Assembly: GCA_946495655.1 (NCBI GenBank)
Contig: CAMMDS010000002.1
Span: forward strand, 28,984-92,983
Reading direction: 5' to 3'
From: an uncultured Clostridium sp.
GTDB lineage: Bacteria > Bacillota > Clostridia > TANB77 > CAG-508
Length of the DNA: 64,000 nucleotides
Every line of letters starts with the position of its first letter. Positions within the stretch are counted from its first letter, which is position 1. Position numbers and translations under genes: made by a program. This document shows, in pieces, positions 23,522-44,368 of the stretch. The notes under the pieces are model-generated. The model had not been told where the DNA came from, ran no database searches, and saw nothing but the letters and a program-made list of their open reading frames with translations.

Positions 23522-23591
23522 CTACCATAGCTTAAGAATGCTTTACAAATATATATAATTTAAAAGAAAGGAGTTATTGTAGTTTTATTTT

Positions 23592-23775
23592 AAGCGCCTG
23601 GACGTATATATTCTAATACGTTGACGAGGAAGAAACCTATCGAAAGATTCGGCGGGTGGTTTCTTGGCAATGGTTACTGCCATAAATATTAGCAAAACCT
23701 GATAGTAATATCAGAATACAAATCTAATAGGGTAACCTTTATTTGTATTGCTTTCTTAAAATTCAGAACTAATTT
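23592..23775 (+). ncRNA. glmS ribozyme (GlcN6P-dependent self-cleaving riboswitch)
   Basis: AGCGCC cleavage-site start, conserved core GTTGACGAGG...TATCGAAAGATTCGGCGG matching the Bacillus glmS ribozyme. Located in the glmS 5' UTR. Confidence 0.85.
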
Positions 23776-23856: not shown

Positions 23857-25710
23857 ATGTGTGGTATTGTAGGATACATTGGTAGCAAAAAAGCTACACC
23901 TATTTTAATAGATGGACTTTTAAGTCTTGAATATAGAGGTTATGACTCAGCAGGAATTGCTACTATTGAAAAAGATGGTATTTCTGTTATGAAAGATAAA
24001 GGAAGAGTAAATAACTTAAATAATTTAGATGGTATAAATAATTTAGATGGTACAGTTGGTATAGCTCATACTAGATGGGCAACACATGGTAAGCCATCAA
24101 AAGAAAATTCTCATCCTCATAAAGATAATAGTGGAATGTTTGCAGTTGTTCATAATGGTATTATTGAGAATTATTCTGAACTTAGAGAATTTTTAACTTC
24201 AAAAGGTTATAGATTTTTATCTCAAACTGATACAGAAGTTATTCCAAATTTAATTCATTATTATTATACAAATGGACCAGTATCTATTTTAGAAAATGAA
24301 AGTGAAAAATTTTTAGGTGCTGTAAAATCAGCTATATATGATTTAAAAGGAAGTTATGCTATAGAAGCTATATCTCCAATATGTCCTGATAAAATTATTG
24401 TAGTAAGAAAAGATAGTCCATTAGTTATTGGAACAGGAAAAGAAGAAAATTACATTGCTTCTGATATTCCAGCTATATTAAAATATACAAAAGATTTCTA
24501 TTTATTAGATGATAATGAATTTGCAGTAGTAGAAAAAGATTGTGTTAGATTTTTTGATAATAGTTTAACAGAACATAATAAAGCTATAAAAAATATTGAA
24601 TGGGATGCAAATGCAGCAGGAAAAGACGGTTTTGAAGATTATATGCTTAAAGAAATCTTTGAGCAGCCAACAGCAATTAGAGAAACAATAGGTTCAAGAT
24701 TCCGTCTAGGCGAAAAATGTTCATTTGATGATATTGAATTATCTAAAGAATATTTAGAAAAAATCAACAAAATTTTTATCGTTGCCTGTGGAACAGCTAT
24801 GCATGCAGGTTTGGTTGGAAAAACAATTATAGAGAACTTATGTCAAATTCCTACAGAAGTAGATATAGCATCTGAATTTAGATATAGAAATCCAATAATA
24901 GATGAACATACTTTATGTATATATATAAGTCAATCTGGAGAAACAGCTGATACTATAGCTGCATTAAAACTTGCCAAATCAAAAGGAGCAAAAACACTTG
25001 CTATTTCAAATGTAATAGGAAGTTCAATAACAAGGGAAGCAGATTATTCTATATATACTCATGCAGGTCCAGAAATTGCAGTTGCATCAACTAAAGCTTA
25101 TACTTCTCAAGTAATGCTTATAGCAATTTTAGCAATGCATTTCGCAGAAATATTAGGAAGATCTTCTGAATCAGATATTGAATCATTAAAATCTGATATG
25201 ATTGATTTACCTTCTAAAATAGAAAAGATATTAGATGATAGTGAAATAATTAAAGAATTTGCAAAAAAAGTTTATACAGAAAAAGATATGTTTTTCTTAG
25301 GAAGAGGTACTGATTATAATGTTGCATTAGAAGGATCATTAAAATTGAAAGAAATTTCATATATTCATTCAGAAGCATATGCAGCTGGTGAATTAAAACA
25401 TGGTCCAATTGCACTTATAGAGAATGGTGTTACAGTTATAGGTATTATCACTAATCCAAATTTAGTTGAAAAATCTATTAGTAATATTCAAGAGGTAATA
25501 ACAAGAGGTGCTAAAACATTAATTATCACAAATCAAATACTTCCAAATAGTCATTTTGATTATGTAATTAATATTCCAGAAACAAATCCTCTTATCTCTC
25601 CTATTTTATCGGTAGTACCAATGCAACTCCTTGCATATTATATATCTAAATTCAAAGGTTTAGATGTTGACAAACCTAGAAACCTTGCAAAATCAGTAAC
25701 TGTTGAATAA
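23857..25710 (+). CDS. glmS: Glutamine--fructose-6-phosphate aminotransferase
   Basis: N-terminal MCGIVGY nucleophile, two SIS domains, C-terminal KSVTVE. Confidence 0.95.
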   Translation: MCGIVGYIGSKKATPILIDGLLSLEYRGYDSAGIATIEKDGISVMKDKGRVNNLNNLDGINNLDGTVGIAHTRWATHGKPSKENSHPHKDNSGMFAVVHNGIIENYSELREFLTSKGYRFLSQTDTEVIPNLIHYYYTNGPVSILENESEKFLGAVKSAIYDLKGSYAIEAISPICPDKIIVVRKDSPLVIGTGKEENYIASDIPAILKYTKDFYLLDDNEFAVVEKDCVRFFDNSLTEHNKAIKNIEWDANAAGKDGFEDYMLKEIFEQPTAIRETIGSRFRLGEKCSFDDIELSKEYLEKINKIFIVACGTAMHAGLVGKTIIENLCQIPTEVDIASEFRYRNPIIDEHTLCIYISQSGETADTIAALKLAKSKGAKTLAISNVIGSSITREADYSIYTHAGPEIAVASTKAYTSQVMLIAILAMHFAEILGRSSESDIESLKSDMIDLPSKIEKILDDSEIIKEFAKKVYTEKDMFFLGRGTDYNVALEGSLKLKEISYIHSEAYAAGELKHGPIALIENGVTVIGIITNPNLVEKSISNIQEVITRGAKTLIITNQILPNSHFDYVINIPETNPLISPILSVVPMQLLAYYISKFKGLDVDKPRNLAKSVTVE

Positions 25711-26405: not shown

Positions 26406-26689
26406 TATTAACTCAACTCCTTATATATCAAAATACTTATTGTTACTATTATATTCAAATAACTGTAAGATTATTCATTATTAGGTAAAAAGTAGTATTT
26501 TAAGTTATAAAAAAAAGAATTGATCCAATCTATCAATCAGGAATTGCAATCATGTGCCCTAGAATATTGTTGTATAGGACAATAAAAATTTCTCAATTTC
26601 TCAATTTTTTTATAAATTTATTGATATTTTATACATTTAGTGGTAAAATATTATTGTTATTATATTAAAGTGATTGATAAAAGATTAGT

Positions 26690-26905
26690 AATAAGATTAA
26701 TTTTATATAGAGAGACTATGGTTGGTGTAAATAGTTTAAAATATCTTATGAATCTACTTTTAGAGCTTTTTATGAAAATAAAACCGAGTTATGCTAGGTT
26801 ATAAGCATTTTAGAGTTGTCAAATTAATTTTGAATAATTAAGGTGGTACCGCGTATATAATTCGCCCTTATGTGTTTTCACATAAGGGATTTTTGTTAAT
26901 TCCTG
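26690..26905 (+). promoter_or_regulatory. T-box riboswitch leader of serS with terminator
   Basis: Conserved T-box sequence AATTAAGGTGGTACCGCG at about 26836-26853, followed by terminator CGCCCTTATGTGTTTTCACATAAGGG plus U-tract. AGAGA-containing stem I region upstream. Confidence 0.75.
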
Positions 26906-26909
26906 TTTT

Positions 26910-27039
26910 TGGAACAAGGGGACGCACAATTTGTTCCAAAAATGAAACAAGGGGACAGACATTAAATTACTTTATAATATATATGTGTCCCACTAGTTAT
27001 TTATTGAAAATGGAACAAATTGTGCGTTCCCTTGTTCCA
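26910..27039. mobile_element. MITE-like palindromic element (family C relative) inserted between the T-box terminator and the serS RBS: 29-bp inverted arms TGGAACAAGGGGACGCACAATTTGTTCCA
   Basis: The arms are reverse complements with one mismatch, and each is also an internal hairpin. The roughly 72-nt interior carries GGGGACAGAC / GTGTCCCAC motifs. Confidence 0.5.
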
Positions 27040-28389: not shown

Positions 28390-28983
28390 ATGATTATCAA
28401 AAATCCAGAATTTAAGATATCTGCAGTAAATCCAAAGCAATATCCAGATGACGAACTACCTCAAATTGTATTAGTTGGAAAATCCAATGTAGGAAAATCA
28501 TCTTTTATTAATACAATGGTAAATAGAAAAAAATTAGCTAGAACAAGTAGTGAACCTGGTAAAACTAGACAAATTAATTTTTACAATATGGATAATAAAT
28601 TTTATTTCGTGGATTTGCCTGGATATGGCTATAGTAAAATGTCTAAAAAAGAGCAAATTGTAGTTGGAAGATTTATAGAAGAATATTTAACAAAAAGCAA
28701 TAATATATCTTTAATAATTTTTTTACTAGATATTAGACATTCACCTACAGAAAATGATAAACTAATGTATCGTTATGTTATTGATTCAGAAAAGCCTTGT
28801 TTAATAATTGCTAATAAAGCAGATAAAATTGCTATTACTAAAGTGGACGATTATGTTCGAGAATTACAGAATAAATTGAATCCTTTGCATGATTTGGTTT
28901 TTATGCCATTTTCTTCAGAAAGGAAAATATATTCTGATAATGTATGGAATGAAATTGAAAAACATTTATATTTAAATCCATGA
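28390..28983 (+). CDS. engB: Ribosome biogenesis GTP-binding protein EngB/YsxC
   Basis: GKSNVGKSS G1 motif, about 195 aa. Confidence 0.9.
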   Translation: MIIKNPEFKISAVNPKQYPDDELPQIVLVGKSNVGKSSFINTMVNRKKLARTSSEPGKTRQINFYNMDNKFYFVDLPGYGYSKMSKKEQIVVGRFIEEYLTKSNNISLIIFLLDIRHSPTENDKLMYRYVIDSEKPCLIIANKADKIAITKVDDYVRELQNKLNPLHDLVFMPFSSERKIYSDNVWNEIEKHLYLNP

Positions 28984-29019
28984 TTCTATTTATGAATTAC
29001 ATAATATTTTTATATTAAT

Positions 29020-29048
29020 TTGACTTTATTAGATAAAAGTATTATAAT
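29020..29048 (+). promoter_or_regulatory. Consensus sigma-A promoter TTGACT-17-TATAAT driving the GC-rich mini-gene
   Basis: Perfect -10, near-perfect -35, 17-nt spacer. Confidence 0.55.
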
Positions 29049-29123
29049 AGAAACATGTTCAATAGAACTACGCAAATATACCCATTTGTTCAATTGGACA
29101 AATAATTTAAGGGAGGCCATTAT

Positions 29124-29336
29124 ATGGCAACATCAGTATCGCAAGAGAAGTATCGGTTCGAAACATTGGAGCAGTTGGACAGAGCAACTGTAAGAGCTTT
29201 CGGAACTCACGAAAACTCATCTTGCTCCTTCGAAAAGGGGTTGATACTGGTTTTTCAACCAGTAGGATCGCTTATTCATGATTCTCAAGTAAGGGAGATT
29301 ATCTCCCAATATGGAGGTAAACTGATCGAAGATTGA
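29124..29336 (+). CDS. Small ORF (70 aa) in a GC-rich island of about 45% GC, with atypical codon usage; alternatively a structured small RNA
   Basis: Strong RBS AGGGAGG. Codons CGG/CTG/GAG/CAG/TCG are unusual for this genome. Several nested hairpins (GGAGCA...TGCTCC, GGGAGATTATCTCCC, CTGGTTTTTCAACCAG). Terminator at 29358-29396. Confidence 0.4.
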   Translation: MATSVSQEKYRFETLEQLDRATVRAFGTHENSSCSFEKGLILVFQPVGSLIHDSQVREIISQYGGKLIED

Positions 29337-29357
29337 TGTGTTCCCGCAACTACAAAG

Positions 29358-29396
29358 TGAGGCTAACCTTTATTGGTTAGCCTCTTCTTTTTCTAT
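29358..29396 (+). terminator. Intrinsic terminator GAGGCTAACC...GGTTAGCCTC plus T-run
   Basis: 10-bp GC-rich stem followed by TTCTTTTTC. Confidence 0.6.
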
Positions 29397-29564
29397 TTTC
29401 TTTACTATCATTTTTAGTGCTTTTGGTCTTTCAATCATTATAGTATGACCACAACCTAGGCATTTTAACTTAAAGTCTACTCCTACTCTTGTTATTTCCC
29501 ATAGTTTACTACCACATGGATGTTGTTTTTTAGTTTTTACTATATCCCCTATACTATATTCCAC
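29370..29564 (-). CDS. DUF951-family small protein
   Basis: Conserved Firmicutes 64-aa protein with HPCG...CLGCGH pattern. Confidence 0.65.
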   Translation of the reverse strand: MEYSIGDIVKTKKQHPCGSKLWEITRVGVDFKLKCLGCGHTIMIERPKALKMIVKKIEKEEANQ

Positions 29565-31609: not shown

Positions 31610-31762
31610 ATGAACAACGAAGTGGTCTTTAATGAAGTCGAAACAATTAAGGTTACAGTTTATGAAGCTTCTAATTGTAGTTGTCCAATTTTTAAAATTG
31701 AATCAGATAATAAATATTCAAATGTATCTGAAATAATTAGTGATACATTACAAATGTATTAA
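31610..31762 (+). CDS. Candidate small ORF (50 aa, MNNEVVFNEVETIKVTVYEASNCSCPIFKI...)
   Basis: RBS GGGGG 8 nt upstream, terminator hairpin AATACCAAGGAGAAATTCCTTGGTATT directly after. Not in the supplied ORF track. Confidence 0.3.
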   Translation: MNNEVVFNEVETIKVTVYEASNCSCPIFKIESDNKYSNVSEIISDTLQMY

Positions 31763-34263: not shown

Positions 34264-35154
34264 TCAATCTATTACTGCTCCTATTATTCCTGCATCATTT
34301 TTTAAATCTGCGAGTACTATATGAGGTAAATTTTCTTTATTGAAAACATATTTTCTTTTATTCATTTCATCAACAAGTTTTTTATAAAATATATCTTTAA
34401 AAAACACAAAACTTCCACCAATGGCTATAGCCTCTGGCTCGAATATATCTATAATATTAGATAATCCAATTATTAAATTATTTATATATTCATCTATTAA
34501 TTTTATTATATCGGAATTGTTAAGATTTTCTTTAACTTTTTCTAATAATTCTTTTGCTGAAATCTCATTGATATTTAATATTTTATTTACATTATCTTTA
34601 AATCTTTTCATTGAGCAATATGTTTCAAAGCATCCTTTTTTACCACAATTACATTCTAATCCATTTCTATCAATTATCATATGTCCAATCTCAAAACCAA
34701 TATGTCTATTTGATTGCATTAGTTTTTCATTTAAGAATACTGCAGATCCAATACCTGTTCCTAAACATAAAAACACAGCATCATTATATTGTTTTAGTGA
34801 ACCATATTTAAACTCTGCAAGGCCTGCAGCTTTTCCATCATTCCTTATTTGCATACGTATATTATATTTTTTTGAAATTTCTTTTAAATTTAATTTTTCT
34901 ATACCCAAATTAACCAAATTATATATTGTTAATTCTTCTTGATTTGGATTTCCAGGACTTGCTATTCCTATCAAATCAATATTATAGTTTTGTGTAAAAT
35001 GGTATATGTTTGAATTTATATATTCTAAAATATATGAATTCATATCTTTATTTGCTTGAATGTCTTGTTCTACCTTCTTTATTATTTTTCCATCACGCGG
35101 ATCTACTAATCCTATTCCAATATGACTCCCACCTAAATCTATACCTAATCTCAT
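34264..35154 (-). CDS. glk: ROK-family glucokinase
   Basis: MRLGIDLGGSH N-terminal ATPase motif, Cys-rich Zn motif C.C..GC.E. Start at 35154 with GGAGG RBS (longer ORF to 35271 unlikely). Confidence 0.85.
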   Translation of the reverse strand: MRLGIDLGGSHIGIGLVDPRDGKIIKKVEQDIQANKDMNSYILEYINSNIYHFTQNYNIDLIGIASPGNPNQEELTIYNLVNLGIEKLNLKEISKKYNIRMQIRNDGKAAGLAEFKYGSLKQYNDAVFLCLGTGIGSAVFLNEKLMQSNRHIGFEIGHMIIDRNGLECNCGKKGCFETYCSMKRFKDNVNKILNINEISAKELLEKVKENLNNSDIIKLIDEYINNLIIGLSNIIDIFEPEAIAIGGSFVFFKDIFYKKLVDEMNKRKYVFNKENLPHIVLADLKNDAGIIGAVID

Positions 35155-35185
35155 TTTTCTTATTCCTCCATATATAATAGAAAAA

Positions 35186-35227
35186 CTATTCAAACAGATT
35201 ATATCACAATATATTCTGTTTGAATAG
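35186..35227 (-). terminator. Terminator at the end of the pilus operon (CTATTCAAACAG...CTGTTTGAATAG)
   Basis: 12-bp stem, T-run on the minus strand after pilC. Confidence 0.5.
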
Positions 35228-35245
35228 TTAAAGTATTTTCTTTCT

Positions 35246-36604
35246 TTAGAAATTTGGTAAATCCACTGCATCGAATAACCAAGTACCCATATAAAGTTGT
35301 ATACATGGTACTATAATTACAATTACTAAGAATATTAAGAACACTCCAACAATTGAATATATAACTTGTGGTAAAACGCTCATTATTCTTTGCATTTCAT
35401 TATTTATATCCATATCCATGTATTCAACAAGTTTACTTATCATTTCAGATAAATCAGTTTGCATACCGATTTTTAACATTTCTGTTTCCATTGATGATGA
35501 TAAACCTGAATTTTCAAATGGCTCTATCCACGATGCACCTATTAATATATTATTAATAGCTGTTTCTATTATAGATAATAGTACATAATTTTTAACTACT
35601 GATTTACTTACTTCTAGCGAATCTTGAATTCTCATTCCATTTTCAAGGTTTAATAACATGGCTCTCATAAATCTTGAAAAATCCATCGCATATATTAATC
35701 TTCCAAAAATAGGCATTTTATATTTAAAATAATGGAAGTTATATTTTCCTTTTGGTGTATTTACATATGCAAAAATTATTCCAACAATTGCAGCAATCAT
35801 TCCAACTGGTATATACCAAACACTCATCAGATTATTACAGAAATTTACAAACCATACTGTAATTTCAGGAAGTTGCTGAGTTGTTCCTGAAGCCTCGAAA
35901 GCTTCTTCTATTAATGGAATAATGTATGCAACACCAAAAATCAATATTCCTAAAATAGCTACTAATTGTAAAACGTTTGGTATTATGATTTTTCTTAGTC
36001 TTGATCCTGTAGTGTCCACATCTTCAAGATATTTTACCGCTTGTTCTAGTGATTTTGTAAGTGATCCAGACATTTCTCCTACTCTTATCATGTTGATATA
36101 TATATATGGGAAAATGTTAGAATAATATTCCATTGTAGTATACATATATTCTCCAGATTCAACACCTGCTAATATATCTTGAAGTATTCCTCTTAGTGAT
36201 AAATTATCTGTACTATCTATTATAGTACTTAAAGCATGTATATTATTAAAGTTTGCTTTTTTCAACAAGTAAAAATTCTGTGTAAAAATTATAATGTCTC
36301 TCGTAGTTATTTTTTCTTCTCTTGCTAATGCTATATTTACTCTTTCCTTTAATGAAGGTTTTGCAGAAATCCTTCCTCGCATAATATTAGCAGAATCAGC
36401 TTGTTTCATTATGTCGTCTATATCCATCATATTTCTTCTATTAACTTTAGTTTTCTTGCTTCTGTATCCAACTTGTACAATACTTATTGGTACTAAGCCA
36501 CTACTCTTCAATTTTTTTATGAGAGTATGTTTATTGGAATCTTCAACTCTATTTCTTACAATTTGTCCCTTTGAAGTAACCGCTCTATAAATATATTCTG
36601 GCAT
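35246..36604 (-). CDS. pilC: Type IV pilus inner-membrane platform protein PilC (GspF family)
   Basis: Two T2SS-F domains and three TM segments. Confidence 0.85.
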   Translation of the reverse strand: MPEYIYRAVTSKGQIVRNRVEDSNKHTLIKKLKSSGLVPISIVQVGYRSKKTKVNRRNMMDIDDIMKQADSANIMRGRISAKPSLKERVNIALAREEKITTRDIIIFTQNFYLLKKANFNNIHALSTIIDSTDNLSLRGILQDILAGVESGEYMYTTMEYYSNIFPYIYINMIRVGEMSGSLTKSLEQAVKYLEDVDTTGSRLRKIIIPNVLQLVAILGILIFGVAYIIPLIEEAFEASGTTQQLPEITVWFVNFCNNLMSVWYIPVGMIAAIVGIIFAYVNTPKGKYNFHYFKYKMPIFGRLIYAMDFSRFMRAMLLNLENGMRIQDSLEVSKSVVKNYVLLSIIETAINNILIGASWIEPFENSGLSSSMETEMLKIGMQTDLSEMISKLVEYMDMDINNEMQRIMSVLPQVIYSIVGVFLIFLVIVIIVPCIQLYMGTWLFDAVDLPNF

Positions 36605-36630
36605 TTTTTCTCCTTTCTAATAAATATACT

Positions 36631-37749
36631 TTATTGATTTATTCTATTGTCCTTTTCTTTTTTTATTTTTAATTGCATTATAGTTCTATTTAAAGTCTCA
36701 ATATTCTTTTCCTCTATTTGTGCTTTTGCTTGTTCTAATGTGATTACATCATTTACAAATAATTCTGCTATAGAATTTATTAATCCTATACTTCCCTTTT
36801 CTAAGTTACTTTGTATTGCATCTTCTATTTCAGATACACTTATTTTTTCTTTTCTAATTATACCAGATACAATATTGTCTACTACCATTACCTCAGGTAC
36901 TAATACTAATTCTCCTGTTTTAGATGGTAATAATCTTTGAGATATAACTAATTTCAATAATGATGAAATTAAGTACTTAACTGTTTGTTGATCTCTTATT
37001 TCATAAAAGTTTACCATTCTATCTATTGTTTCTGCACATGACTTTGTATGAAGAGTTCCTATAACTAAATGTCCTGACTCTGCTGTCTCTATTGCTGCTT
37101 CCATAGTTTCTCTGTCTCTAATCTCTCCTATTACTAATATATCACAGTCTTCTCTTAATGAGTTTTTAACACCATCACTAAAGCTTAAACAATCTCTTCC
37201 AGCCCCAACTTCTTTCTGAATTATAACAGATTTTTTACTTGTATGCTTATATTCAACTGGATTTTCTAGTGTAAGTATTTTTTTGTTTTGATTTTCATTT
37301 ATTTCATTAATTAATGCATTTAATGTTGTTGTTTTTCCAGAATTAGTTTTACCAGTAACAAGCATTAATCCTTGTGGCTGATATGTCATTCTTCTTACTA
37401 TATCAGGAACACCTAAATCTTCATATTTTGGTAATTCATTTTTTATAAGTCTCATTGTAAATACTGGTATTTCATTAGCCAAAGAGATATTAACCCTTAA
37501 ACGTATGTCTTCAAATTCAAACGAAGTATCTAGTTTCTTTGTTTCTTTAAAAACTCTATCTTTATCTACATTTCCACGTACAAAATAATCATATACTTCA
37601 TACATATCATCTTCTACTAGAGGTGAAGGACATTCATATTCTATTAATTCTCTTCTAATTCTTAACATTGGCTTTAATCCGCAGATTAAATGTACATCAG
37701 AAGCATCCTTTTTACGTGCAGTATCCAAAATTTTATCAATATCTATCAT
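36631..37749 (-). CDS. pilT: Type IV pilus retraction ATPase PilT
   Basis: Walker A GKTNSGKTTT, Asp box, His box. 372 aa and no N-terminal GSPII-N domain. Confidence 0.85.
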   Translation of the reverse strand: MIDIDKILDTARKKDASDVHLICGLKPMLRIRRELIEYECPSPLVEDDMYEVYDYFVRGNVDKDRVFKETKKLDTSFEFEDIRLRVNISLANEIPVFTMRLIKNELPKYEDLGVPDIVRRMTYQPQGLMLVTGKTNSGKTTTLNALINEINENQNKKILTLENPVEYKHTSKKSVIIQKEVGAGRDCLSFSDGVKNSLREDCDILVIGEIRDRETMEAAIETAESGHLVIGTLHTKSCAETIDRMVNFYEIRDQQTVKYLISSLLKLVISQRLLPSKTGELVLVPEVMVVDNIVSGIIRKEKISVSEIEDAIQSNLEKGSIGLINSIAELFVNDVITLEQAKAQIEEKNIETLNRTIMQLKIKKEKDNRINQ

Positions 37750-37766
37750 TTGTTACCTCCATATTT

Positions 37767-39392
37767 TTAATATAATGCTAATTTATTATTTAGCTCATCC
37801 AAATTTGTAATACCATCTATTATCTTGTTTATACCATCTACAATTAATGGTACATATCCGTTTTGCAATGCTACATCCCTAATTTCCATCGCTGGCTTAT
37901 TTTCTACAATTAAAGATCTTATTGTATCATTTAACATTAATACTTCAAATATTCCAATTCTTCCAAGATATCCTGTATTATGACATTTTTTACATCCTAC
38001 TGCATCAAATGTTTTCTTTCCTTCTATATCGAATTTGATATTATATTTTTCTCCTATTTTTCCTATTATTTCTTTCTCTTTTTCTGTATAATCTCTTTCT
38101 CTAGCACAATGAGGACACAATCTTCTTACCAATCTCTCTGAAACTGATGTAGCCAAAGTACTTGATATATCATAGTTCGATATTCCCATTTTTCTCAATC
38201 TTGTTATAACTTCCACAGCATCAATTGTATGAATTGTTGATAATACGTAATGACCAGTTTGTCCAGCTTGCATTGCTATTTCTGCAGTTTCTGTATCTCT
38301 TATTTCTCCAACTAGTATAATATCTGGATCTTGTCTCAATACTGTTCTTAATGAATCTACAAAAGTTATTTTTTGATCAACTTCTATTTGATTTAATCCG
38401 TTTATTCTAATTTCTACTGGATCTTCAATAGTAGTAATATTTATTTGCGGTTTATTTAAATAATCTATAATACTGTATAATGTAGTAGTTTTACCCTCTC
38501 CTGTTGGAGCCGCTATAACAGTGATACTATTCTTTTTGTTAAATGCATTTTTTACTAGATTTTGGTCATTTGGGAATCCTAAATCAAATAATGATCTTAC
38601 ATCTTCGTTTTTCTTTAATAATCTTAGAACGAATTTTTCTCCATATATATTCTTTTGTGAAGAAACACGAATATTATATTCTGGATACATTATAATTCTA
38701 CCATCTTGTGATTCTTGTTTTTCTTGATGCATATTAGATATTGCTTTTAATCTTCCTACAATTTGTGATTGTTTTTCTTTTCCTATATCTGCTGCATTAA
38801 CTAATACACCATCAATTCTATATCTAATTCTCATTCCCTCTTGCATCGGTTCTATATGGATATCACTCGCCCTTTTATCCATTGCTGTTTTTATTACACT
38901 ATCTATAAATCCAGAAACATCTGCATTTACATCTATAGTCTCCGAACTACCGCCAAAAGAATTCAAAATCAAATCAATATTTGTTTCAAATGTTATATAT
39001 TTTTCCATTATAAGGCCTTTATTTAAAAGTAAAAGCCTTACAGTTTCAACAGCTCTTTTATTTGAAGTATCTGCAAAGCATACTTTTATTCTTCCACTTA
39101 CTTCTTCAAATGGTATAGCTTTATATTGTTTTGCAGTATCAATTGAAATATAATCAAGAATATTAAGTTTAATATCTGCTTCTCTTAAATATATTGCTTT
39201 TTCTTCTAGAATCTCTCCCATTGCATTTATTAATACATATGGATCACATACTCTTAAAATATTTAATATATCTCCGATTTTCTTTTTGGGTTCAGCTTTT
39301 TGATAATCTAATGCTCTTTCAATATCTTCTTCAGTAACAATTCCTCTTTTTACTAATTCTATTCCTAAAGGTTGTCTTTTTTTTGACTCCAT
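37767..39392 (-). CDS. pilB: Type IV pilus assembly ATPase PilB (GspE family)
   Basis: N-terminal GSPII_E_N domain, Walker A APTGEGKTTT, tetracysteine CPHC...CKKC zinc motif. Confidence 0.9.
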   Translation of the reverse strand: MESKKRQPLGIELVKRGIVTEEDIERALDYQKAEPKKKIGDILNILRVCDPYVLINAMGEILEEKAIYLREADIKLNILDYISIDTAKQYKAIPFEEVSGRIKVCFADTSNKRAVETVRLLLLNKGLIMEKYITFETNIDLILNSFGGSSETIDVNADVSGFIDSVIKTAMDKRASDIHIEPMQEGMRIRYRIDGVLVNAADIGKEKQSQIVGRLKAISNMHQEKQESQDGRIIMYPEYNIRVSSQKNIYGEKFVLRLLKKNEDVRSLFDLGFPNDQNLVKNAFNKKNSITVIAAPTGEGKTTTLYSIIDYLNKPQINITTIEDPVEIRINGLNQIEVDQKITFVDSLRTVLRQDPDIILVGEIRDTETAEIAMQAGQTGHYVLSTIHTIDAVEVITRLRKMGISNYDISSTLATSVSERLVRRLCPHCARERDYTEKEKEIIGKIGEKYNIKFDIEGKKTFDAVGCKKCHNTGYLGRIGIFEVLMLNDTIRSLIVENKPAMEIRDVALQNGYVPLIVDGINKIIDGITNLDELNNKLALY

Positions 39393-39459
39393 AGAATTTC
39401 TCCTTTCATTAGTTATATATTATATATTATTAACTTTTTTTATAATAATATTATTAATT

Positions 39460-39912
39460 TCACCAATATCTCAAAGTAAAACTAATATTTTGAGTTATTG
39501 AATCTTCGGCATTTCTTCCAATTTGTAAATCTACATTAATAATATTTTTACTAACTGTATTTACAGTATAAGGTGATAATGTAAAATTACATCCTAATAT
39601 ATTTTGTGCTATACGTACATCATTCCTATAGATAAAATTGTTTTGATACGTATATACTGGCCCATCTTCGAATTCTATAGTGTTATTTGTTACTGTAGCA
39701 TTATCATAGTTTTTTACATCAGTAGCAAAAAACATGGCAAATTTATTGAATTCATTAATGTATTTGGGTGAATTAACTGCTTCCCCAATGTTAGCATAAA
39801 AAAATGTACTTATTGTAGTTAAAACACCTATAACCAAAGTTAGTATGAACATATATGCAACTAAAGCCGCTAACGTAATACCTTTTTCACTTTTAACTTT
39901 ATTTTTCCACAT
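39460..39912 (-). CDS. Minor pilin-like protein (prepilin-type N-terminus KG|ITLAALV, no Glu5)
   Basis: Class III signal-like N-terminus followed by a hydrophobic helix. Confidence 0.6.
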   Translation of the reverse strand: MWKNKVKSEKGITLAALVAYMFILTLVIGVLTTISTFFYANIGEAVNSPKYINEFNKFAMFFATDVKNYDNATVTNNTIEFEDGPVYTYQNNFIYRNDVRIAQNILGCNFTLSPYTVNTVSKNIINVDLQIGRNAEDSITQNISFTLRYW

Positions 39913-39942
39913 TTGTTACACGAAAAGCCCCTTTCACAATAG

Positions 39943-40368
39943 TTATATTTCCTTAATTTTTAATCTTTTGACTGTAAATTCTTCTGTTTCTCCTGCTACT
40001 GTATATGAGATTTTTAAATTTACAATTTTTATTACATCTTTTATATAAGGTTTTCCTTCTCCATAGTCTGTTAATTGTAAATCCACATTAAATCCATTTG
40101 GTATAGAAAATTGTTCTTTATATTCAGCCCCCGTCATATTTTGAGCATCTTCATACGATAATTTATCAATATCTTCTAATATTTGTACTGCATAGAATGT
40201 CATTTGCGATGTTAAATTTGCTCTAATGTTAATATGATAAACCGAATACATTAATGTTCCAATAATTCCTACAAATGCAACAAATATAAAGCATGCAATA
40301 AGTAAATCTTGCATTGTAAATCCATTTTCTGATTTTAAATTAATTTTTAATTTACTTTTATTGTTCAT
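39943..40368 (-). CDS. Minor pilin-like protein (NG|FTMQDLL, Asp at +5)
   Basis: Prepilin cleavage motif G-F-T-M and hydrophobic helix. Confidence 0.65.
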   Translation of the reverse strand: MNNKSKLKINLKSENGFTMQDLLIACFIFVAFVGIIGTLMYSVYHINIRANLTSQMTFYAVQILEDIDKLSYEDAQNMTGAEYKEQFSIPNGFNVDLQLTDYGEGKPYIKDVIKIVNLKISYTVAGETEEFTVKRLKIKEI

Positions 40369-40372
40369 TTAA

Positions 40373-41188
40373 TCACCTATAAAAAATCACATAATTAGTT
40401 ATTAGTAACATTATTATATTTGAAACACACATGTAAAATCCTATTGGAATTTTAGTATTTTCAATTTTAACTCTTTTTACAATCTTACTCTTTTTTTCAC
40501 TTAGTTTTTGAATCAATAATTGAATTGAAATAGCAAGTAATGTAATAATTACTGTATATATATATACAGTTTCATATGTAAATAAAATCATTAACATTGA
40601 TAATAATAAAACATCAATAGTATAACTGTCTTGACCTTTTTTTCTTAAATACACAATGCTAAATAGCAATAATATGCATGATAACATTAAATAAATAACA
40701 TATCTATAGATACTAGCATCATTTTCTACTATATATAGATATATCATATATAATGTAACACAAATAAAGCCAAATAATAATACTGGCTTTTCTATTCTAA
40801 TTCTTTCTTTATCGATTCCAGCAATAATAAACAGTGTTGCTAAATATAACAATCCCACAACAAAATATACTAATATTTGATTGTTTAAATTAAAAATACT
40901 AATTTTAATTGAAGCTGCAAATAATACAAATACAACACCTGATAATATTTCAAGTAAAATATATCTAACTCTAATTTTTTCTTTGCAATATCTACATCTT
41001 CCACCTAAAAAGGTATAACTTAATATTGGTATCATGTCTAAAAAAGTTAATTTATGATTGCAATTAGGGCAATATGAACGTGTATGAGTTATATCTTGTC
41101 CTAATGGAATCCTATATACTGCTAAAGTAAAAAAGCTACCAAATAAAGTGCCTATGCAAAATATTAAAATATATAATATATAGTCCAT
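40373..41188 (-). CDS. pilD: Prepilin peptidase (A24 family)
   Basis: N-terminal CxxC...CxxC zinc motif, polytopic membrane protein. Confidence 0.85.
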   Translation of the reverse strand: MDYILYILIFCIGTLFGSFFTLAVYRIPLGQDITHTRSYCPNCNHKLTFLDMIPILSYTFLGGRCRYCKEKIRVRYILLEILSGVVFVLFAASIKISIFNLNNQILVYFVVGLLYLATLFIIAGIDKERIRIEKPVLLFGFICVTLYMIYLYIVENDASIYRYVIYLMLSCILLLFSIVYLRKKGQDSYTIDVLLLSMLMILFTYETVYIYTVIITLLAISIQLLIQKLSEKKSKIVKRVKIENTKIPIGFYMCVSNIIMLLITNYVIFYR

Positions 41189-41317
41189 ATGTTCTCCTTA
41201 TTTTGAAATAGAGGTTATACTTAAAATATAATTACATATTTTAAATTATATTTGAATAGTATAACCTCTTCTATTTTAGTTTAAAGAAATCTTAAACCGT
41301 TTAAAACTTTTTTACTA

Positions 41318-41554
41318 CTAATTTGTAGCTATGCCTTTTTCTGTTAGTATTCCATCAATGTAATGCTCTACGTTTGTAATAGACTGTTCTGTGTACTTTG
41401 TATCATTTGCATAGAACTCTTCAGCTTGCTCAGCACGTCCTATAAGTCCATCACTTCCAAAAGCAAATGTAATTGCTACTGTTGCTAAAATTATTAATAT
41501 AATTATTGTTATAACTAAAGCAACTAATGTGATACCCCTTTGATTCTTTAACAT
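41318..41554 (-). CDS. Short type IV pilin-like protein (78 aa), candidate major pilin. N-terminus QRG|ITLVALVITIIILIILATV lacks Glu5.
   Basis: Prepilin-like N-terminus. Followed by a long imperfect hairpin (41205-41285) before pilD. N-terminal 50 aa are homologous to the RCC1-fusion protein at 57845-59131. Confidence 0.65.
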   Translation of the reverse strand: MLKNQRGITLVALVITIIILIILATVAITFAFGSDGLIGRAEQAEEFYANDTKYTEQSITNVEHYIDGILTEKGIATN

Positions 41555-41630
41555 AAAAAATTCCTCCTTATAAAAATTTTTTTGTATATATTTAATTTAA
41601 TAAATATAACCTAGTTCATTAAGAATTAAA

Positions 41631-42059
41631 TTACTTAATTCCTTCTTCATTAAAAAATGTTCCTGTTGAATTTTCATCTATATTGCTTGGTTCATTGTTT
41701 TCATTTGTATCTTGATTATTACTGCCATTACCCTCTCCAGATGTTCCTGTATTTGTTGTTTCACTTTCTAGTGAAAATGGGTTAGCTTTTCCTTCTGTAT
41801 AACTTCCACTTTGTTTATAAATATTTAAATCTGAATCTGTAACTTCATAAGTTACTTCAATTTTTTCAGTTTCTGATATTGTTTCATCAATTTCATTTCT
41901 TACATTTTCTGGTGTTACATATGCTTCTTTCTCTGGCACAACTTTATTTATAGGAATATAATCATAAAATAGTATTCCTAAAATTAATAATATAGCTATA
42001 CTCAAGAGTAATATTATAAAAATTTCTTTAATTACCGATTTTAGCATACTTGCCTCCAT
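41631..42059 (-). CDS. Membrane-anchored hypothetical protein with acidic Thr/Asn-rich tail (pilus operon)
   Basis: N-terminal TM helix. Position inside the pilus operon. Confidence 0.5.
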   Translation of the reverse strand: MEASMLKSVIKEIFIILLLSIAILLILGILFYDYIPINKVVPEKEAYVTPENVRNEIDETISETEKIEVTYEVTDSDLNIYKQSGSYTEGKANPFSLESETTNTGTSGEGNGSNNQDTNENNEPSNIDENSTGTFFNEEGIK

Positions 42060-42068
42060 TTATCATCA

Positions 42069-42752
42069 TTATTGTGTAATTTCATTTGATGTATCTGTAT
42101 TAGTTGTATCTGTTTCTGTATTAGTTGTTGTAGTACCATCTGATGTAGTAGACTCTACTGTAGTTGTTGTATTTTCTAAATCTATTCTAATACCAGTTAC
42201 ATTAAATGTTGCTTGTAGATTTTCTCCATCTGGAAGTAGATGAAAATTCTCTATTCTAAATTCTAGCTCGCTATCATTTTCAAGTGCTGATATAAATTCT
42301 ATTATTCCTGCATATTGTCCTGTTACTGTAAAATTTATATTCTTAACAGTAGAATCACCTGCGTCTCCAGATAACACATCCATTCTAAAATTTACACCCT
42401 CTGTTCTTGCATGTCTTCCTATTCTTAGCCATAGGTATTCAATTTTATAAACTTCTTGTGTATTAGCTTCATTTATTTCGCTTTCTGTACTAACATTAGC
42501 CAAATTATAATAGCTTTCTTTGTTTTCTAATAATACACTAACATTATCAGATAATTCTGTTTTTTTGTTTTGTAAATCGCTTTTTATTTTTATATTAGCT
42601 TCATTTATTTCTGTTGTTAAATTGTCATTAAGTTCTATTATACCTTGTGTACTCAAAATTTGAAATGAGCCTATAGAAATTCCTTGAAATATAGTGAAAT
42701 ATGCCAGAACAATTAATAATACGAGTAATACTGCTATTAAAATTTTTCTCAT
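42069..42752 (-). CDS. pilO: PilO-like pilus assembly protein
   Basis: Single N-terminal TM, coiled coil, periplasmic-type domain. Overlaps the pilMN stop by 4 nt. Confidence 0.55.
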   Translation of the reverse strand: MRKILIAVLLVLLIVLAYFTIFQGISIGSFQILSTQGIIELNDNLTTEINEANIKIKSDLQNKKTELSDNVSVLLENKESYYNLANVSTESEINEANTQEVYKIEYLWLRIGRHARTEGVNFRMDVLSGDAGDSTVKNINFTVTGQYAGIIEFISALENDSELEFRIENFHLLPDGENLQATFNVTGIRIDLENTTTTVESTTSDGTTTTNTETDTTNTDTSNEITQ

Positions 42753-44368
42753 GGCAAATCCCCCTCTATAACAATCTTGACAAAATCGCCTTGTTTTTCT
42801 CCTTGTGTAGAAACTACATTTGTTAATATTCTATCTTCTTTAAGTTTTGCTTTAAAATATCCTAATTCATCGTAATATCTAGATTGTGCATTAATTACTA
42901 TATGTCTTCCTTCTGAACCTGCAGTATTTTCAATTTCAGTTATTTGTACTTGTCTAGGTATAGCAGACATTATTTCTACTAATAGATTTGGAATTGAGTT
43001 TTTTAAGCTCAAATCATTTTCTATTTTGTCATTTATATTTCTAAGGTTGTCTTCCATTTCTTTATATCTATTAGCTTTTTGTTTTACTTCATTTATATCA
43101 CTATCTGCTAAAGCTATCTGAGCATCTGTATAATCGCTTACTTCTTGTGCTTCAACTATTTTATCATTTATTCTATTATTTAAATAAATAGAAAAACCTG
43201 AAAATAATATTGTAAGCATTAATACTCCAGCAGCACTTCTTAATAACCACTTTTCTGTAAGATCAAATTTTCCTTTCAAGCTAAAGTTAAGTTTTTTTCC
43301 ACTTTTCTTTTCTTTTTTTCCTAAACTTACATCTATCTTTAGCCAATCTGGTAATTGGTCTATAAGGCTTGGTTTTTTGAAATTCATGTTCTTGATACCA
43401 TAGCCTAATCCTTGCATTGCTATAGCAATTGCTGAATTCACTTCTATATAGTCTTTTATGTTTATTTTTACGCTTTCTGTGATGAAATAAGGTTTTAGTA
43501 CTTCGCATTTTTCTGTTTGGAAAAACTCTTGAAAATATAAATCTATATTATTTACAACTGACATTGTACCAGTCAAATAAATCTTTTCAAACTTCACAGT
43601 TGTACTAGCTACATATTCTTGTACTTTTGTTACTATTTTGTATAATGTAGGCATTATATAATCTAGATATTCATTTTCTTCGTCCTGTAATTCTTTTCCT
43701 TCCATTGTGTATATTGTAGAATTTTTACAAATCTCATACGCTTTAGAATATGAATTTTCTTTACTAGCAATTTTTCCTAATATATCTCCAGAACCTTCTT
43801 CTAGTTTTTCTACATTATATATTTTTTGATTTATTATACTAGTTATACTAGTATTTTCTTCTATATTTACAATTATTATGTTTTCCTTAGGTTTAATAGA
43901 TGCAATATTGGCAATACTAGTTCCTATTGGAGTTATTGTAGATACCTTGTAATCATTGAATGTTTGTAAAGTTTTTGAAATTGACGATTTGTTTGAAGAA
44001 ACATGTATTACTTTTACTTTATCTTTATCATCAATTTCATTCGATAACGCATATCTTGCTTCAAATGCATTTTTATTTAACTTTTTGTCATAACAATATG
44101 AATCAAATTCAGTATCTATAGCTTGTTTTAGATCATTCTTGTTAAGAAGGCTAAACATATAGAAATAGTTGTATATTTCTTCAGATAGATTTATACTTAT
44201 TGGTATATTATAGCTATAAGTTTCTGAAACAATTTGTTCTATTGCTTCACCAATTTTTTCATAAAACTTTACTCCAAAAGATTCTATCTTTAAAAGTTCA
44301 CGATCTTTGGTTACTTTTGCATATTTAATTACATTGTTTTCTATATATAATCCTAAACAGCTAGACAT
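42749..44368 (-). CDS. pilMN: PilM-PilN fusion protein
   Basis: Actin-like PilM domain of about 330 aa, TM segment LLRSAAGVLMLTILFSGFSIYL, then PilN-like coiled-coil domain. Confidence 0.8.
   Translation of the reverse strand: MSSCLGLYIENNVIKYAKVTKDRELLKIESFGVKFYEKIGEAIEQIVSETYSYNIPISINLSEEIYNYFYMFSLLNKNDLKQAIDTEFDSYCYDKKLNKNAFEARYALSNEIDDKDKVKVIHVSSNKSSISKTLQTFNDYKVSTITPIGTSIANIASIKPKENIIIVNIEENTSITSIINQKIYNVEKLEEGSGDILGKIASKENSYSKAYEICKNSTIYTMEGKELQDEENEYLDYIMPTLYKIVTKVQEYVASTTVKFEKIYLTGTMSVVNNIDLYFQEFFQTEKCEVLKPYFITESVKINIKDYIEVNSAIAIAMQGLGYGIKNMNFKKPSLIDQLPDWLKIDVSLGKKEKKSGKKLNFSLKGKFDLTEKWLLRSAAGVLMLTILFSGFSIYLNNRINDKIVEAQEVSDYTDAQIALADSDINEVKQKANRYKEMEDNLRNINDKIENDLSLKNSIPNLLVEIMSAIPRQVQITEIENTAGSEGRHIVINAQSRYYDELGYFKAKLKEDRILTNVVSTQGEKQGDFVKIVIEGDLP

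Follow-up and report, generated by a model that had tools for sequence, protein, structure and literature searches.

The DNA analyzed here is a stretch of 64,000 nucleotides (nt) from an uncultured Clostridium sp. (GenBank assembly GCA_946495655.1, contig CAMMDS010000002.1, forward-strand positions 28,984 to 92,983); it is called the window below, and positions are counted from its first nucleotide. At 29020-29394 on the + strand it carries a self-contained single-gene transcription unit of ~340 nt that encodes a protein of 70 amino acids (aa), and whose promoter, 5' leader, open reading frame (ORF) and terminator are inherited together. The best-conserved part of this gene unit is the leader. 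We concluded that the unit probably gives rise to a strongly transcribed, stable mRNA under cis-acting post-transcriptional control, coding for a small protein of an unannotated family. A preliminary description of the same DNA had singled out the region as a GC-rich mini-gene and proposed either a laterally acquired or conserved small protein or an abundant structured small RNA (sRNA), perhaps 6S-like. What it missed is that the leader itself is a conserved RNA element and that the rare-codon, high-folding coding region is a selected trait of the family. Loci used for comparison are cited by L numbers and protein clusters by P numbers; L001, whose protein is 81% identical, is the nearest diverged relative.

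The sigma-A type promoter (29020-29048, + strand) consists of TTGACT (29020-29025), a 17-nt spacer and TATAAT (29043-29048). It is present where the preliminary description placed it, and the "perfect consensus" claimed for it amounts to a match at 11 of 12 positions. Among the 19 promoter-like sites found in a 2.5-kb scan it is the best and the sole 11/12 site; the scan as a whole gave no excess of sites over shuffled sequence (16.1 ± 4.6 expected). TTGACT-N17-TATAAT was read by eye at the same distance from the leader in most homologous loci, with a weaker or displaced promoter in L013/L054 and L052; hexamers spaced at 16-18 nt and conserved in relatives are what is expected of a sigma-A promoter. 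Transcription is predicted to start ~7 nt past the -10 box, at ~29055, which gives a leader of ~69 nt up to the ATG (29055-29123, + strand) rather than the 75 nt given earlier. The Shine-Dalgarno sequence GGGAGG (29111-29116, + strand) lies 7 nt ahead of the start codon, and AAGGGAGG stands ahead of the ATG at 29124. GGAGG or GGGAGG is found 6-10 nt before the start codon in all 14 loci, the start codon being ATG (GTG in L055). The coding sequence (29124-29336, + strand; MATSVSQEKYRFETLEQLDRATVRAFGTHENSSCSFEKGLILVFQPVGSLIHDSQVREIISQYGGKLIED) begins with this ATG and ends with TGA at 29334-29336, in agreement with the 70-codon ORF and strong ribosome-binding site described before.

A short 3' untranslated region (UTR; 29337-29358, + strand), where both the window and L001 have UUGAUGU...UUYCC, a complement of codons 3-5 and of the Shine-Dalgarno sequence, separates the stop codon from an intrinsic terminator (29359-29394, + strand; GAGGCUAACC / UUUAUU / GGUUAGCCUC, then a U run). 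The terminator is as strong as had been supposed: its stem (29359-29384) has 10 bp, six of them G-C, and is followed by TTCTTTTTCT. In L001 the stem carries a compensatory G-C to A-U change, and hairpins with T runs are visible past the stop codon in most other homologous loci, so that a G+C-rich hairpin plus U run, with the stem kept in relatives, closes the unit as an intrinsic terminator should. The convergent DUF951 gene (29370-29564, - strand; Pfam PF06107, E = 5.8e-26) lies outside the unit, and the terminator hairpin overlaps its last codons (EANQ, stop). On the - strand the hairpin is not followed by a T run, and transcripts from the DUF951/gltX side may therefore read antisense into the small gene.

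The ORF is a real protein gene under purifying selection and not an sRNA. The window and L001 ORFs differ at 13, 2 and 29 sites in codon positions 1, 2 and 3 (29 of 44 differences at position 3), and the ratio of nonsynonymous to synonymous substitution rates (dN/dS) is 0.066, in the same range as that of the neighbors serS, gltX and DUF951 in the same comparison (0.055-0.082). All full-length ORFs of the family are intact and differ in length by whole codons; in the L031 copy the reading frame is broken by a stop. Synonymous-biased substitution, a maintained frame and a conserved Shine-Dalgarno spacing are together the marks of a protein gene, and the proposal of a conserved small protein was borne out, family members being 24-81% identical.

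The alternative proposal of a structured or 6S-like sRNA found no support. In the Rfam/Infernal search that the preliminary description had suggested, no family was found for the unit at the gathering threshold or at E ≤ 10: Rfam 15 (4,227 models) run over the whole window at gathering threshold gave only a glmS ribozyme and tRNA-Met, and the E-value mode (E ≤ 10) on 28900-29500 returned only sR48 (20 bits, E = 0.44) on the wrong strand. The 6S covariance models (RF00013 etc.) had no match in the window, in 28900-29500 or in five homologous loci. We therefore rejected known RNA families including 6S RNA, which is a rod-like molecule of ~180-200 nt with a central bubble. Codon-aligned RNAalifold analysis of the coding region gave -0.64 kcal/mol (z = -1.8) for 10 sequences and -3.8 kcal/mol (z = -0.6) for the six closest, without shared base pairs, and a conserved structure inside the ORF was rejected as well. 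The nested hairpins noticed before are nevertheless there: the 342-nt transcript folds at -107.9 kcal/mol, with z = -5.45 against dinucleotide shuffles (z = -5.1 for the L001 transcript). The opposite strand folds nearly as well (z = -5.0), and folding alone thus cannot separate an RNA gene from a palindrome-rich mRNA. Like 6S and other GC-island RNAs, the unit stands out as GC-rich in a 28% GC genome, is flanked by a promoter and a terminator of its own and has a strongly negative folding z; it differs in having no Rfam match, and its island is an ORF under purifying selection that lacks conserved structure. This is a caution for screens for GC-island noncoding RNAs in AT-rich genomes: the island passes the composition and folding tests, yet it is a protein gene.

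Next, we compared the leaders. The leader (~70 nt from the -10 box to the ATG) is conserved in every lineage, including paralogues at unrelated loci, most of which also keep the promoter. Relatives whose proteins are 24-49% identical to that of the window have leaders that are 67-88% identical to the window leader; the exceptions are L001, with its 81% identical protein, and the tandem paralogue L019p (leader 51%, protein 29%). The position of the leader relative to the gene is fixed in 15 of 15 cases. A covariance model, R1, was built from 14 leaders; the 15 training leaders, which match by construction, scored 47-91 bits, and nothing else in ~208 kb, including the whole window searched with filters off, scored above 30 bits.

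The leader can form three hairpins. P1 (29057-29068, + strand; GUUC / AAUA / GAAC) would lie ~2 nt from the predicted 5' end. Its 4-bp core is pairable in 13 of 13 leaders and its loop is 4-5 nt long; the L022 version, GCUU/GAGC, has one compensatory pair and one wobble, and those of L055 and L019p contain G-U. P2 (29084-29103, + strand; AUUUGUUC / AAUU / GGACAAAU) stands 7 nt upstream of the Shine-Dalgarno sequence and has 6-8 bp and a loop of 4-8 nt in 13 of 13 leaders. Its 3' arm can be GGAC, GAAC, GGGC or GAGC while the GUUC that it faces stays constant, an alternation of U-A and U-G that pairs only on the + strand, and compensatory changes were found in L022 (GCUC/GGGC) and L019p (GUGC/GCAC). 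P3 (29116-29128, + strand; GCCAU / UAU / AUGGC) holds the start codon in its 3' arm. It is part of the minimum-energy fold of ~9 of 14 leaders, with 72% of its cells paired in the model alignment; in L044 it reads GGUCAU/AUGACC, where U-A has replaced C-G in a compensatory change and codon 2 has become ACC, and in L013 it contains a G-U pair.

In the manual register P1 and P2 were paired in all 13 leaders. In the model alignment 87% of cells pair, vs 32-46% when the partners are slid by 1-3 columns, and four pairs show compensatory change. A tally of the per-pair table gives 32 G-U wobbles among 253 cells, and these pair on the + strand only. The strand-specific U-A/U-G alternation, the wobble cells and the variation of the loops from 4 to 8 nt, which a dimeric operator would not accept, together indicate RNA hairpins rather than a DNA operator. 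On these pairing patterns the leader hairpins appear conserved as RNA on the + strand, the covariation statistics being only suggestive.

Two further observations concern the leader. In L048, a Clostridia metagenome-assembled genome (MAG) from sheep colon, a look-alike of P2 plus the Shine-Dalgarno sequence (1916-2009, + strand; 30 bits) follows a TTGACT/TATAAT promoter and precedes an unrelated 80-aa ORF with a hydrophobic N-terminus, with a LexA-box-like GAAC-N4-GTTC just upstream; sharing P2 and the Shine-Dalgarno sequence only, it is likely a chance match or a distant relation. An upstream ORF or leader peptide was rejected: by hand translation the AUG in the window leader gives MFNRTTQIYPFVQLDK-stop, the leader AUG of relatives opens other frames and lengths (three codons in L022), and the ATG is missing in L052, L055 and L019p.

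The stem arms of P1 and P2 repeat, such that P1-5' can pair with P2-3' and P1-3' with P2-5'. The resulting long-range fold is one helix of ~13 bp with the linker as its loop, and by constrained ensemble energies its difference from the two-hairpin fold lies between -3.1 and +0.6 kcal/mol for 12 of the 13 leaders. All four arms have changed in concert in L022, to GCUU/GAGC and GCUC/GGGC. Switching between the two leader folds is plausible. We propose that if both folds are used, every stem base would be constrained twice, which could account for a near-frozen leader sequence without a sequence-specific binder.

The second selected feature is the composition of the ORF. In 200-nt windows the GC content is 0.40-0.415 at 29100-29399 vs 0.22-0.33 nearby, and the GC-rich island reported earlier was confirmed, with 42.3% GC in the ORF vs 28.1% in the window. 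The excess is mainly at third codon positions: the third-position GC content (GC3) of 0.394 is the maximum of the window, ~5 standard deviations (sd) above the mean of 0.145 (sd 0.050) for 63 window ORFs. The genome-usage index of the ORF, 0.365, is the lowest in the window (0.706 ± 0.070). The earlier remark that the ORF uses codons avoided elsewhere (CGG, CTG, TCG etc.) was correct; the other window ORFs, with 18,278 codons in all, contain CGG four times, and CTG, TCC and TCG each ~1 time per 1,000 codons. Across the family CGG makes up 0.29 of Arg codons (background 0.00), ACC 0.28 of Thr (0.01), CCC 0.24 of Pro (0.00), TCC 0.18 of Ser (0.01) and ATC 0.30 of Ile (0.05), and CTC and CTG share the contrast. 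GC3 is 0.33-0.47 in 11 of 13 full-length homologues, at host loci with a GC content of 0.24-0.32. Ordinary high-expression codon bias was rejected as the cause, because dnaK, rpsF, ssb and rpsR have a GC3 of 0.06-0.15. CGG encodes the Arg of the ERY motif (GAG CGG UAU CAG) in L016, L022, L034, L052 and L019 (read directly in L019); Arg11 is CGG in the window (29151-29153) and also in L001. No pairing partner was found for the conserved CGG.

To assess folding apart from composition, codons were shuffled synonymously within each ORF, which leaves protein, codon counts and GC content unchanged. All 13 family ORFs fold better than their synonymous shuffles (mean z -2.07; window -3.31). In a control, 18 window segments gave a mean z of -0.36 (Mann-Whitney p = 1e-4). 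The folding energy of the ORF is -61 kcal/mol vs ~-30 kcal/mol for typical 213-nt gene segments. Since high GC3, rare codons (CGG, CTG, TCC, ACC, CCC) and excess folding are found family-wide, they point to selection and not to recent transfer. The family conserves high GC3 and good folding as such, and not one particular structure. The simplest reading of the GC-rich ORF would be selection for a compact, long-lived, nuclease-resistant mRNA. Decay of GC3 in L001 explains the dS of 1.33 for the small gene in comparison to 0.2-0.5 for its neighbors.

We also examined pairing between the two ends of the mRNA. In many minimum-energy folds of the full transcripts, the Shine-Dalgarno sequence is paired with a CU-rich stretch that lies at the stop codon or directly behind it; the window and L001 have in common a helix of 8 bp in which codons 3-5 (ACAUCAGU) pair with AUUGAUGU at the stop. 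Compared with shuffled 3' segments, the duplex energy gave a family mean z of -0.6 (p = 0.05-0.43; p = 0.05-0.08 for the window and L001). Because this is no better than shuffles across the family, we do not claim mRNA closure by 5'-3' pairing. The arrangement recalls the icaR mRNA of Staphylococcus aureus, in which an anti-Shine-Dalgarno motif in the 3' UTR pairs with the 5' UTR: in the predicted fold of the window and L001, GGGAG and codons 3-5 pair with UUGAUGU...UUCCC just past the stop. The difference is that the 5'-3' duplex does not exceed that of shuffled 3' segments across our family, so that the feature is not established here.

Taken together, these features suggest how the unit might work. 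A near-consensus sigma-A promoter would drive an mRNA built for long life and post-transcriptional control. In its leader, P1 would stand ~2 nt from the 5' end, P2 just upstream of a very strong Shine-Dalgarno sequence, and P3 would hold the AUG; the leader could thereby act as an mRNA stabilizer and as a translation control, and it may refold as one long helix of nearly equal energy. The host-rare, G/C-ending codons would be arranged to fold more stably than synonymous alternatives, and the strong terminator hairpin would close the unit. Several points weigh against this picture. The start site, the abundance of the mRNA and its half-life are all predictions from sequence. P3 is absent or different in 4-5 leaders (L052, L055, L034 and L019p among them). 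The covariation is modest: 25-46 of 500 shuffles reach the observed measures, and there are only 15 related leaders. The divergent paralogue L019p keeps the local hairpins only and cannot form the long-range fold, and in the other leaders near-equal energies follow automatically from duplicated identical stems and are no independent evidence of a switch. L001 (GC3 0.20) and L044 (0.24) have lost most of the GC3 excess and kept the gene. Finally, the folding excess of the coding region comes without conserved base pairs, so the GC3 excess could serve a non-structural role, for example rare-codon-gated translation.

Rare-codon gating, in which the host-rare G/C-ending codons would tie synthesis to scarce or regulated tRNAs such as tRNA-Arg(CCG) and hence to physiological state, has in its favor the contrast between four CGG codons in all other window ORFs and 29% of Arg codons in the family, the recurrence of CGG at the ERY Arg in several lineages and at Arg11 in the window and L001, the same contrast for CTC, CTG, CCC, ACC and TCC, and the lowest genome-usage index in the window. 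We regard it as quite unlikely on its own, because the rare codons are spread over the ORF and not clustered, L001 and L044 have replaced many of them and kept the gene, and selection for structure explains the same data. The only tRNA gene in the window is that of tRNA-Met. A combined version, with a bistable leader switch (P1 and P2 favored kinetically, the long helix thermodynamically) and the host-rare G/C codons, including the conserved CGG, acting together as a post-transcriptional gate, is a speculative idea that we rate low. Of similarly low probability is autoregulation, by which an RRM/S6-like small protein would bind its own twin hairpins as a dimer and repress translation or change mRNA stability. 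It would explain why leader and ORF are always co-inherited and why the stem sequences are conserved. Within the ~208 kb searched the leader is found only ahead of family members, it accompanies every paralogue, its two similar sites would suit a dimeric binder, the predicted protein topology is beta-alpha-beta-beta-alpha-beta, and L022 changed all four stem arms together. On the other hand, members of the family are mostly acidic or neutral (pI 4.7-6.7; charge -3.3 for the window protein), which is unusual for RNA binders; neither a Pfam RNA recognition motif (RRM) nor another RNA-binding family was matched at E ≤ 1; the predicted fold matches generic ferredoxin-like proteins at E ≥ 0.03; and the L048 look-alike precedes an unrelated gene.

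The remaining explanations fare worse. A dual-function RNA, regulating as a folded transcript and also translated as in SR1/SR1P of Bacillus subtilis or RNAIII/hld of Staphylococcus aureus, could draw on the transcript z-scores of -5.5 (window) and -5.1 (L001), on coding regions that outfold synonymous shuffles in 13 of 13 homologues and on a ~340-nt transcript with strong promoter and terminator; it is very improbable given purifying selection over the whole protein, the lack of conserved base pairs in the coding region and the lack of an Rfam match. We consider it just as doubtful that the twin palindromes are DNA operators at which a dimeric repressor forms a roadblock. In the window the inverted repeats TGTTC-N4-GAAC and TGTTC-N4-GGACA, which run from the predicted start, are ~31 bp apart from center to center, and a near-consensus promoter might need a repressor; but half-site spacing is 4-8 nt and, by our own count, the center-to-center distance ranges from 28.5 to 32 bp across leaders, the 3' arms carry A or G opposite an invariant U (which keeps the + strand RNA paired and breaks DNA symmetry, as do the 32 wobble cells), and the order is GTTC...GAAC. 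A LexA (Cheo) box of Gram-positive bacteria is GAAC-N4-GTTC at fixed spacing, and was rejected here since in the leader the half-sites stand the other way round (GTTC-N4-6-GAAC) and their spacing varies. Recent horizontal acquisition from a higher-GC donor, with the gene not yet drifted to host composition, would fit a GC3 5 sd above the window and the atypical codons. This suggestion of the preliminary description was not upheld and is extremely unlikely: the neighborhood is the same in several diverged lineages, 11 of 13 full-length homologues, some of them paralogues at other loci, have the GC3 excess, promoter and leader have the AT content of the host (GC 0.29-0.36), and no homologues were found in phage or plasmid collections or outside the low-GC clade. 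Synteny and a family-wide GC3 trait led us to reject recent transfer, and a phage or plasmid origin was rejected on the lack of any tblastn match in either collection.

The protein search proposed in the preliminary description was productive. A word-indexed search of 5.8 billion proteins gave two clusters, P0001 (99% identical) and P0002 (81%), both from metagenome assemblies only. A filter-free HMMER scan of 1.84 billion representatives gave 13 true relatives of 68-134 aa, including the representative of the query's own cluster and two tandem fusions; the giant proteins P0013 and P0014 on the HMMER list were discarded as spurious repeat matches. A profile search gave 16 clusters, all unnamed and none with Pfam domains. 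In all, there are ~20 homologues (68-134 aa), exclusively in metagenomes and MAGs of low-GC Clostridia. A scan of a genome collection with the leader pattern gave four true instances among 27 matches, each followed by a family ORF (interrupted in L031) and all in MAGs labelled uncultured Clostridia, Bacillota or Clostridium sp. Among carrier MAGs, L034 is on a contig of 297 kb, L036 on one of 45 kb and L044 on one of 29 kb. A scan of JGI metagenomes with a protein-derived DNA pattern returned 60 loci, none of the family, which accords with ENA and Logan assemblies being the only source of protein matches. Neither Pfam nor NCBIfam has a match to the 70-aa product (Pfam none at E ≤ 1 for 12 members), PHROGs and PADLOC were negative for the family, and sequence-profile searches of the PDB gave nothing significant; a co-linear profile match to the C-terminal domain of AhrC/ArgR (E = 1.1, not significant) is recorded as a lead only.

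The family core reads ERYxF-SL--MD-A---AFG--E-----EKGL-L-F-P-GS--FD--VR-----YGGK-I. AlphaFold2 was run on alignments of 3 and of 17 sequences, and both models have the order beta-alpha-beta-beta-alpha-beta with a predicted local distance difference test score (pLDDT) of 76-78, a predicted ferredoxin-like fold in which a sheet of four strands packs on two helices. Foldseek matched the model against the PDB to generic ferredoxin-fold proteins (designed folds, UreE, HMA domains, ribosomal protein S6) at E ≥ 0.03, with template modeling scores (TM-scores) of 0.45-0.63. An RRM is recognized by aromatic residues in its RNP1 (beta-3) and RNP2 (beta-1) motifs; Pfam RRM gave no match at E ≤ 1 in 12 members, and beta-3 reads KGLILVF, with Leu where an RRM has aromatics. 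Predicted topology and the size of ~70 aa are shared with stand-alone ferredoxin-like domains (ACT, HMA, the C-terminal domains of UreE and ArgR/AhrC). The matches to these are insignificant, however, and the protein lacks a CxxC metal motif, a Pfam ACT or HMA match and the GDD motif of ArgR. In P0009, P0010, P0011, P0015-P0018, P0020, P0021 and P0024 (e.g., L016 1279-1536) a C-terminal tail of 15-20 residues is found, variable except for a terminal S-[S/D/N]-R-stop; the window protein has no tail.

The window and the P0001 and P0002 loci share the gene order glmS, bofA, DUF2508, serS, engB and the small ORF; beyond it, and encoded on the other strand, are DUF951, gltX and rnj. The gene is again found between engB and a convergent DUF951 gene in L001, L007, L016, L019, L022, L052 and L057, and gltX and rnj are next wherever contigs reach that far. 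The family duplicates readily. Paralogues are found elsewhere, after an NFACT gene in L013/L054, beside uvrB in L055 and in tandem in L019, where a 95-aa paralogue (1183-1470; L019p) with its own promoter and a diverged leader lies directly upstream of the main copy. P0004 and P0008 (130-134 aa) are head-to-tail fusions of two domains. No second leader or gene copy was found within the 64-kb window. The hosts carry sporulation genes: BofA and DUF2508 in the window neighborhood and SpoIIP in L013.

Other features of the window were noted. Upstream of serS lies a T-box leader (26664-26872, + strand) whose score of 90.5 bits (E = 2e-20) is slightly below the Rfam gathering score, 93, so that the default scan passed it over. 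The terminator of this T-box and the ribosome-binding site of serS flank an element of ~130 nt (26910-27039; also L008 3668-3795) with 29-nt terminal inverted repeats (TGGAACAAGGGGACGCACAATTTGTTCCA) that are 97% complementary. It is present in the window and the near-identical strain L008 and absent from L007 and L009, which have a shorter spacer, and from this distribution it looks like a small mobile palindromic insertion; each arm is a GGAACAA...TTGTTCC palindrome, resembling the arms of the leader hairpins. The glmS ribozyme (23582-23739, + strand; 89 bits) upstream of glmS (23857-25710) is an ordinary known feature. A 50-aa ORF (31610-31762, + strand; MNNEVVFNEVETIKVTVYEASNCSCPIFKIESDNKYSNVSEIISDTLQMY) between gltX and rnj has no Pfam match; a gene of 50 aa is likewise predicted at this place in L001, L007, L009 and L010, and this may be another conserved small protein. 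At 34264-44368 (- strand) is an ORF cluster with type IV pilus-like features, including short ORFs with prepilin-like hydrophobic N-terminal segments, and a T2SSF gene is found at the equivalent end of L001.

The unit provides an unannotated small-protein family, with no match in Pfam, NCBIfam or the PDB and no UniProt-derived name, confined to uncultured low-GC Clostridia, together with a candidate leader RNA motif, not represented in Rfam, whose conservation exceeds that of the protein encoded behind it. The unit is also a clean natural case of selected synonymous sites (GC3 of 0.33-0.47 where other genes have ~0.15), and might be used as a test case for what mRNA structure or rare codons contribute to tuning small-protein expression. 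If the post-transcriptional gate were true, synthesis of the acidic protein would be restricted to certain conditions, for instance a shift in temperature, germination or an altered supply of tRNAs; the leader would then represent a new class of cis-regulatory RNA, and the unit the first case of "GC-codon gating" in any AT-rich Firmicute.

In its use of codons that the genome otherwise avoids, the family resembles genes under TTA/bldA control, the rare-codon control of GC-rich Streptomyces; the compositional direction is the opposite here, and many codons are concerned rather than one. In organization, the closest analogies are the csp genes and the Gram-positive 5' stabilizers. Escherichia coli cspA encodes a cold-shock protein of ~70 aa with an OB (oligonucleotide/oligosaccharide-binding) fold behind a structured 5' UTR of ~160 nt (RF01766) that adopts alternative folds. 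Shared with the CspA family are proteins of ~70 aa, scattered single-gene paralogues with their own strong promoters, and a conserved 5' UTR that travels with the gene and is capable of alternative folds, which in csp affect stability and translation; different are the predicted ferredoxin-like fold, the acidic protein and the ~69-nt twin-hairpin leader with no Rfam match at E ≤ 10. Gram-positive 5' stabilizers (the aprE leader, the ermC 5' stem-loop and cryIIIA STAB-SD) protect mRNA from 5'-end-dependent decay by RNase J1 and are conserved as structure and position, not as sequence across distant paralogues. Like them, our unit has a hairpin near the 5' end (P1, ~2 nt from the predicted end) and then a strong Shine-Dalgarno sequence (AAGGGAGG); unlike them, its stems are nearly invariant and duplicated, P1 resembling P2, and the start site is a predicted one. 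Compared with these systems, the unit is unusual in a leader that outconserves its protein and contains duplicated, cross-pairing hairpins, and in a rare-codon, over-folded ORF that is kept by selection.

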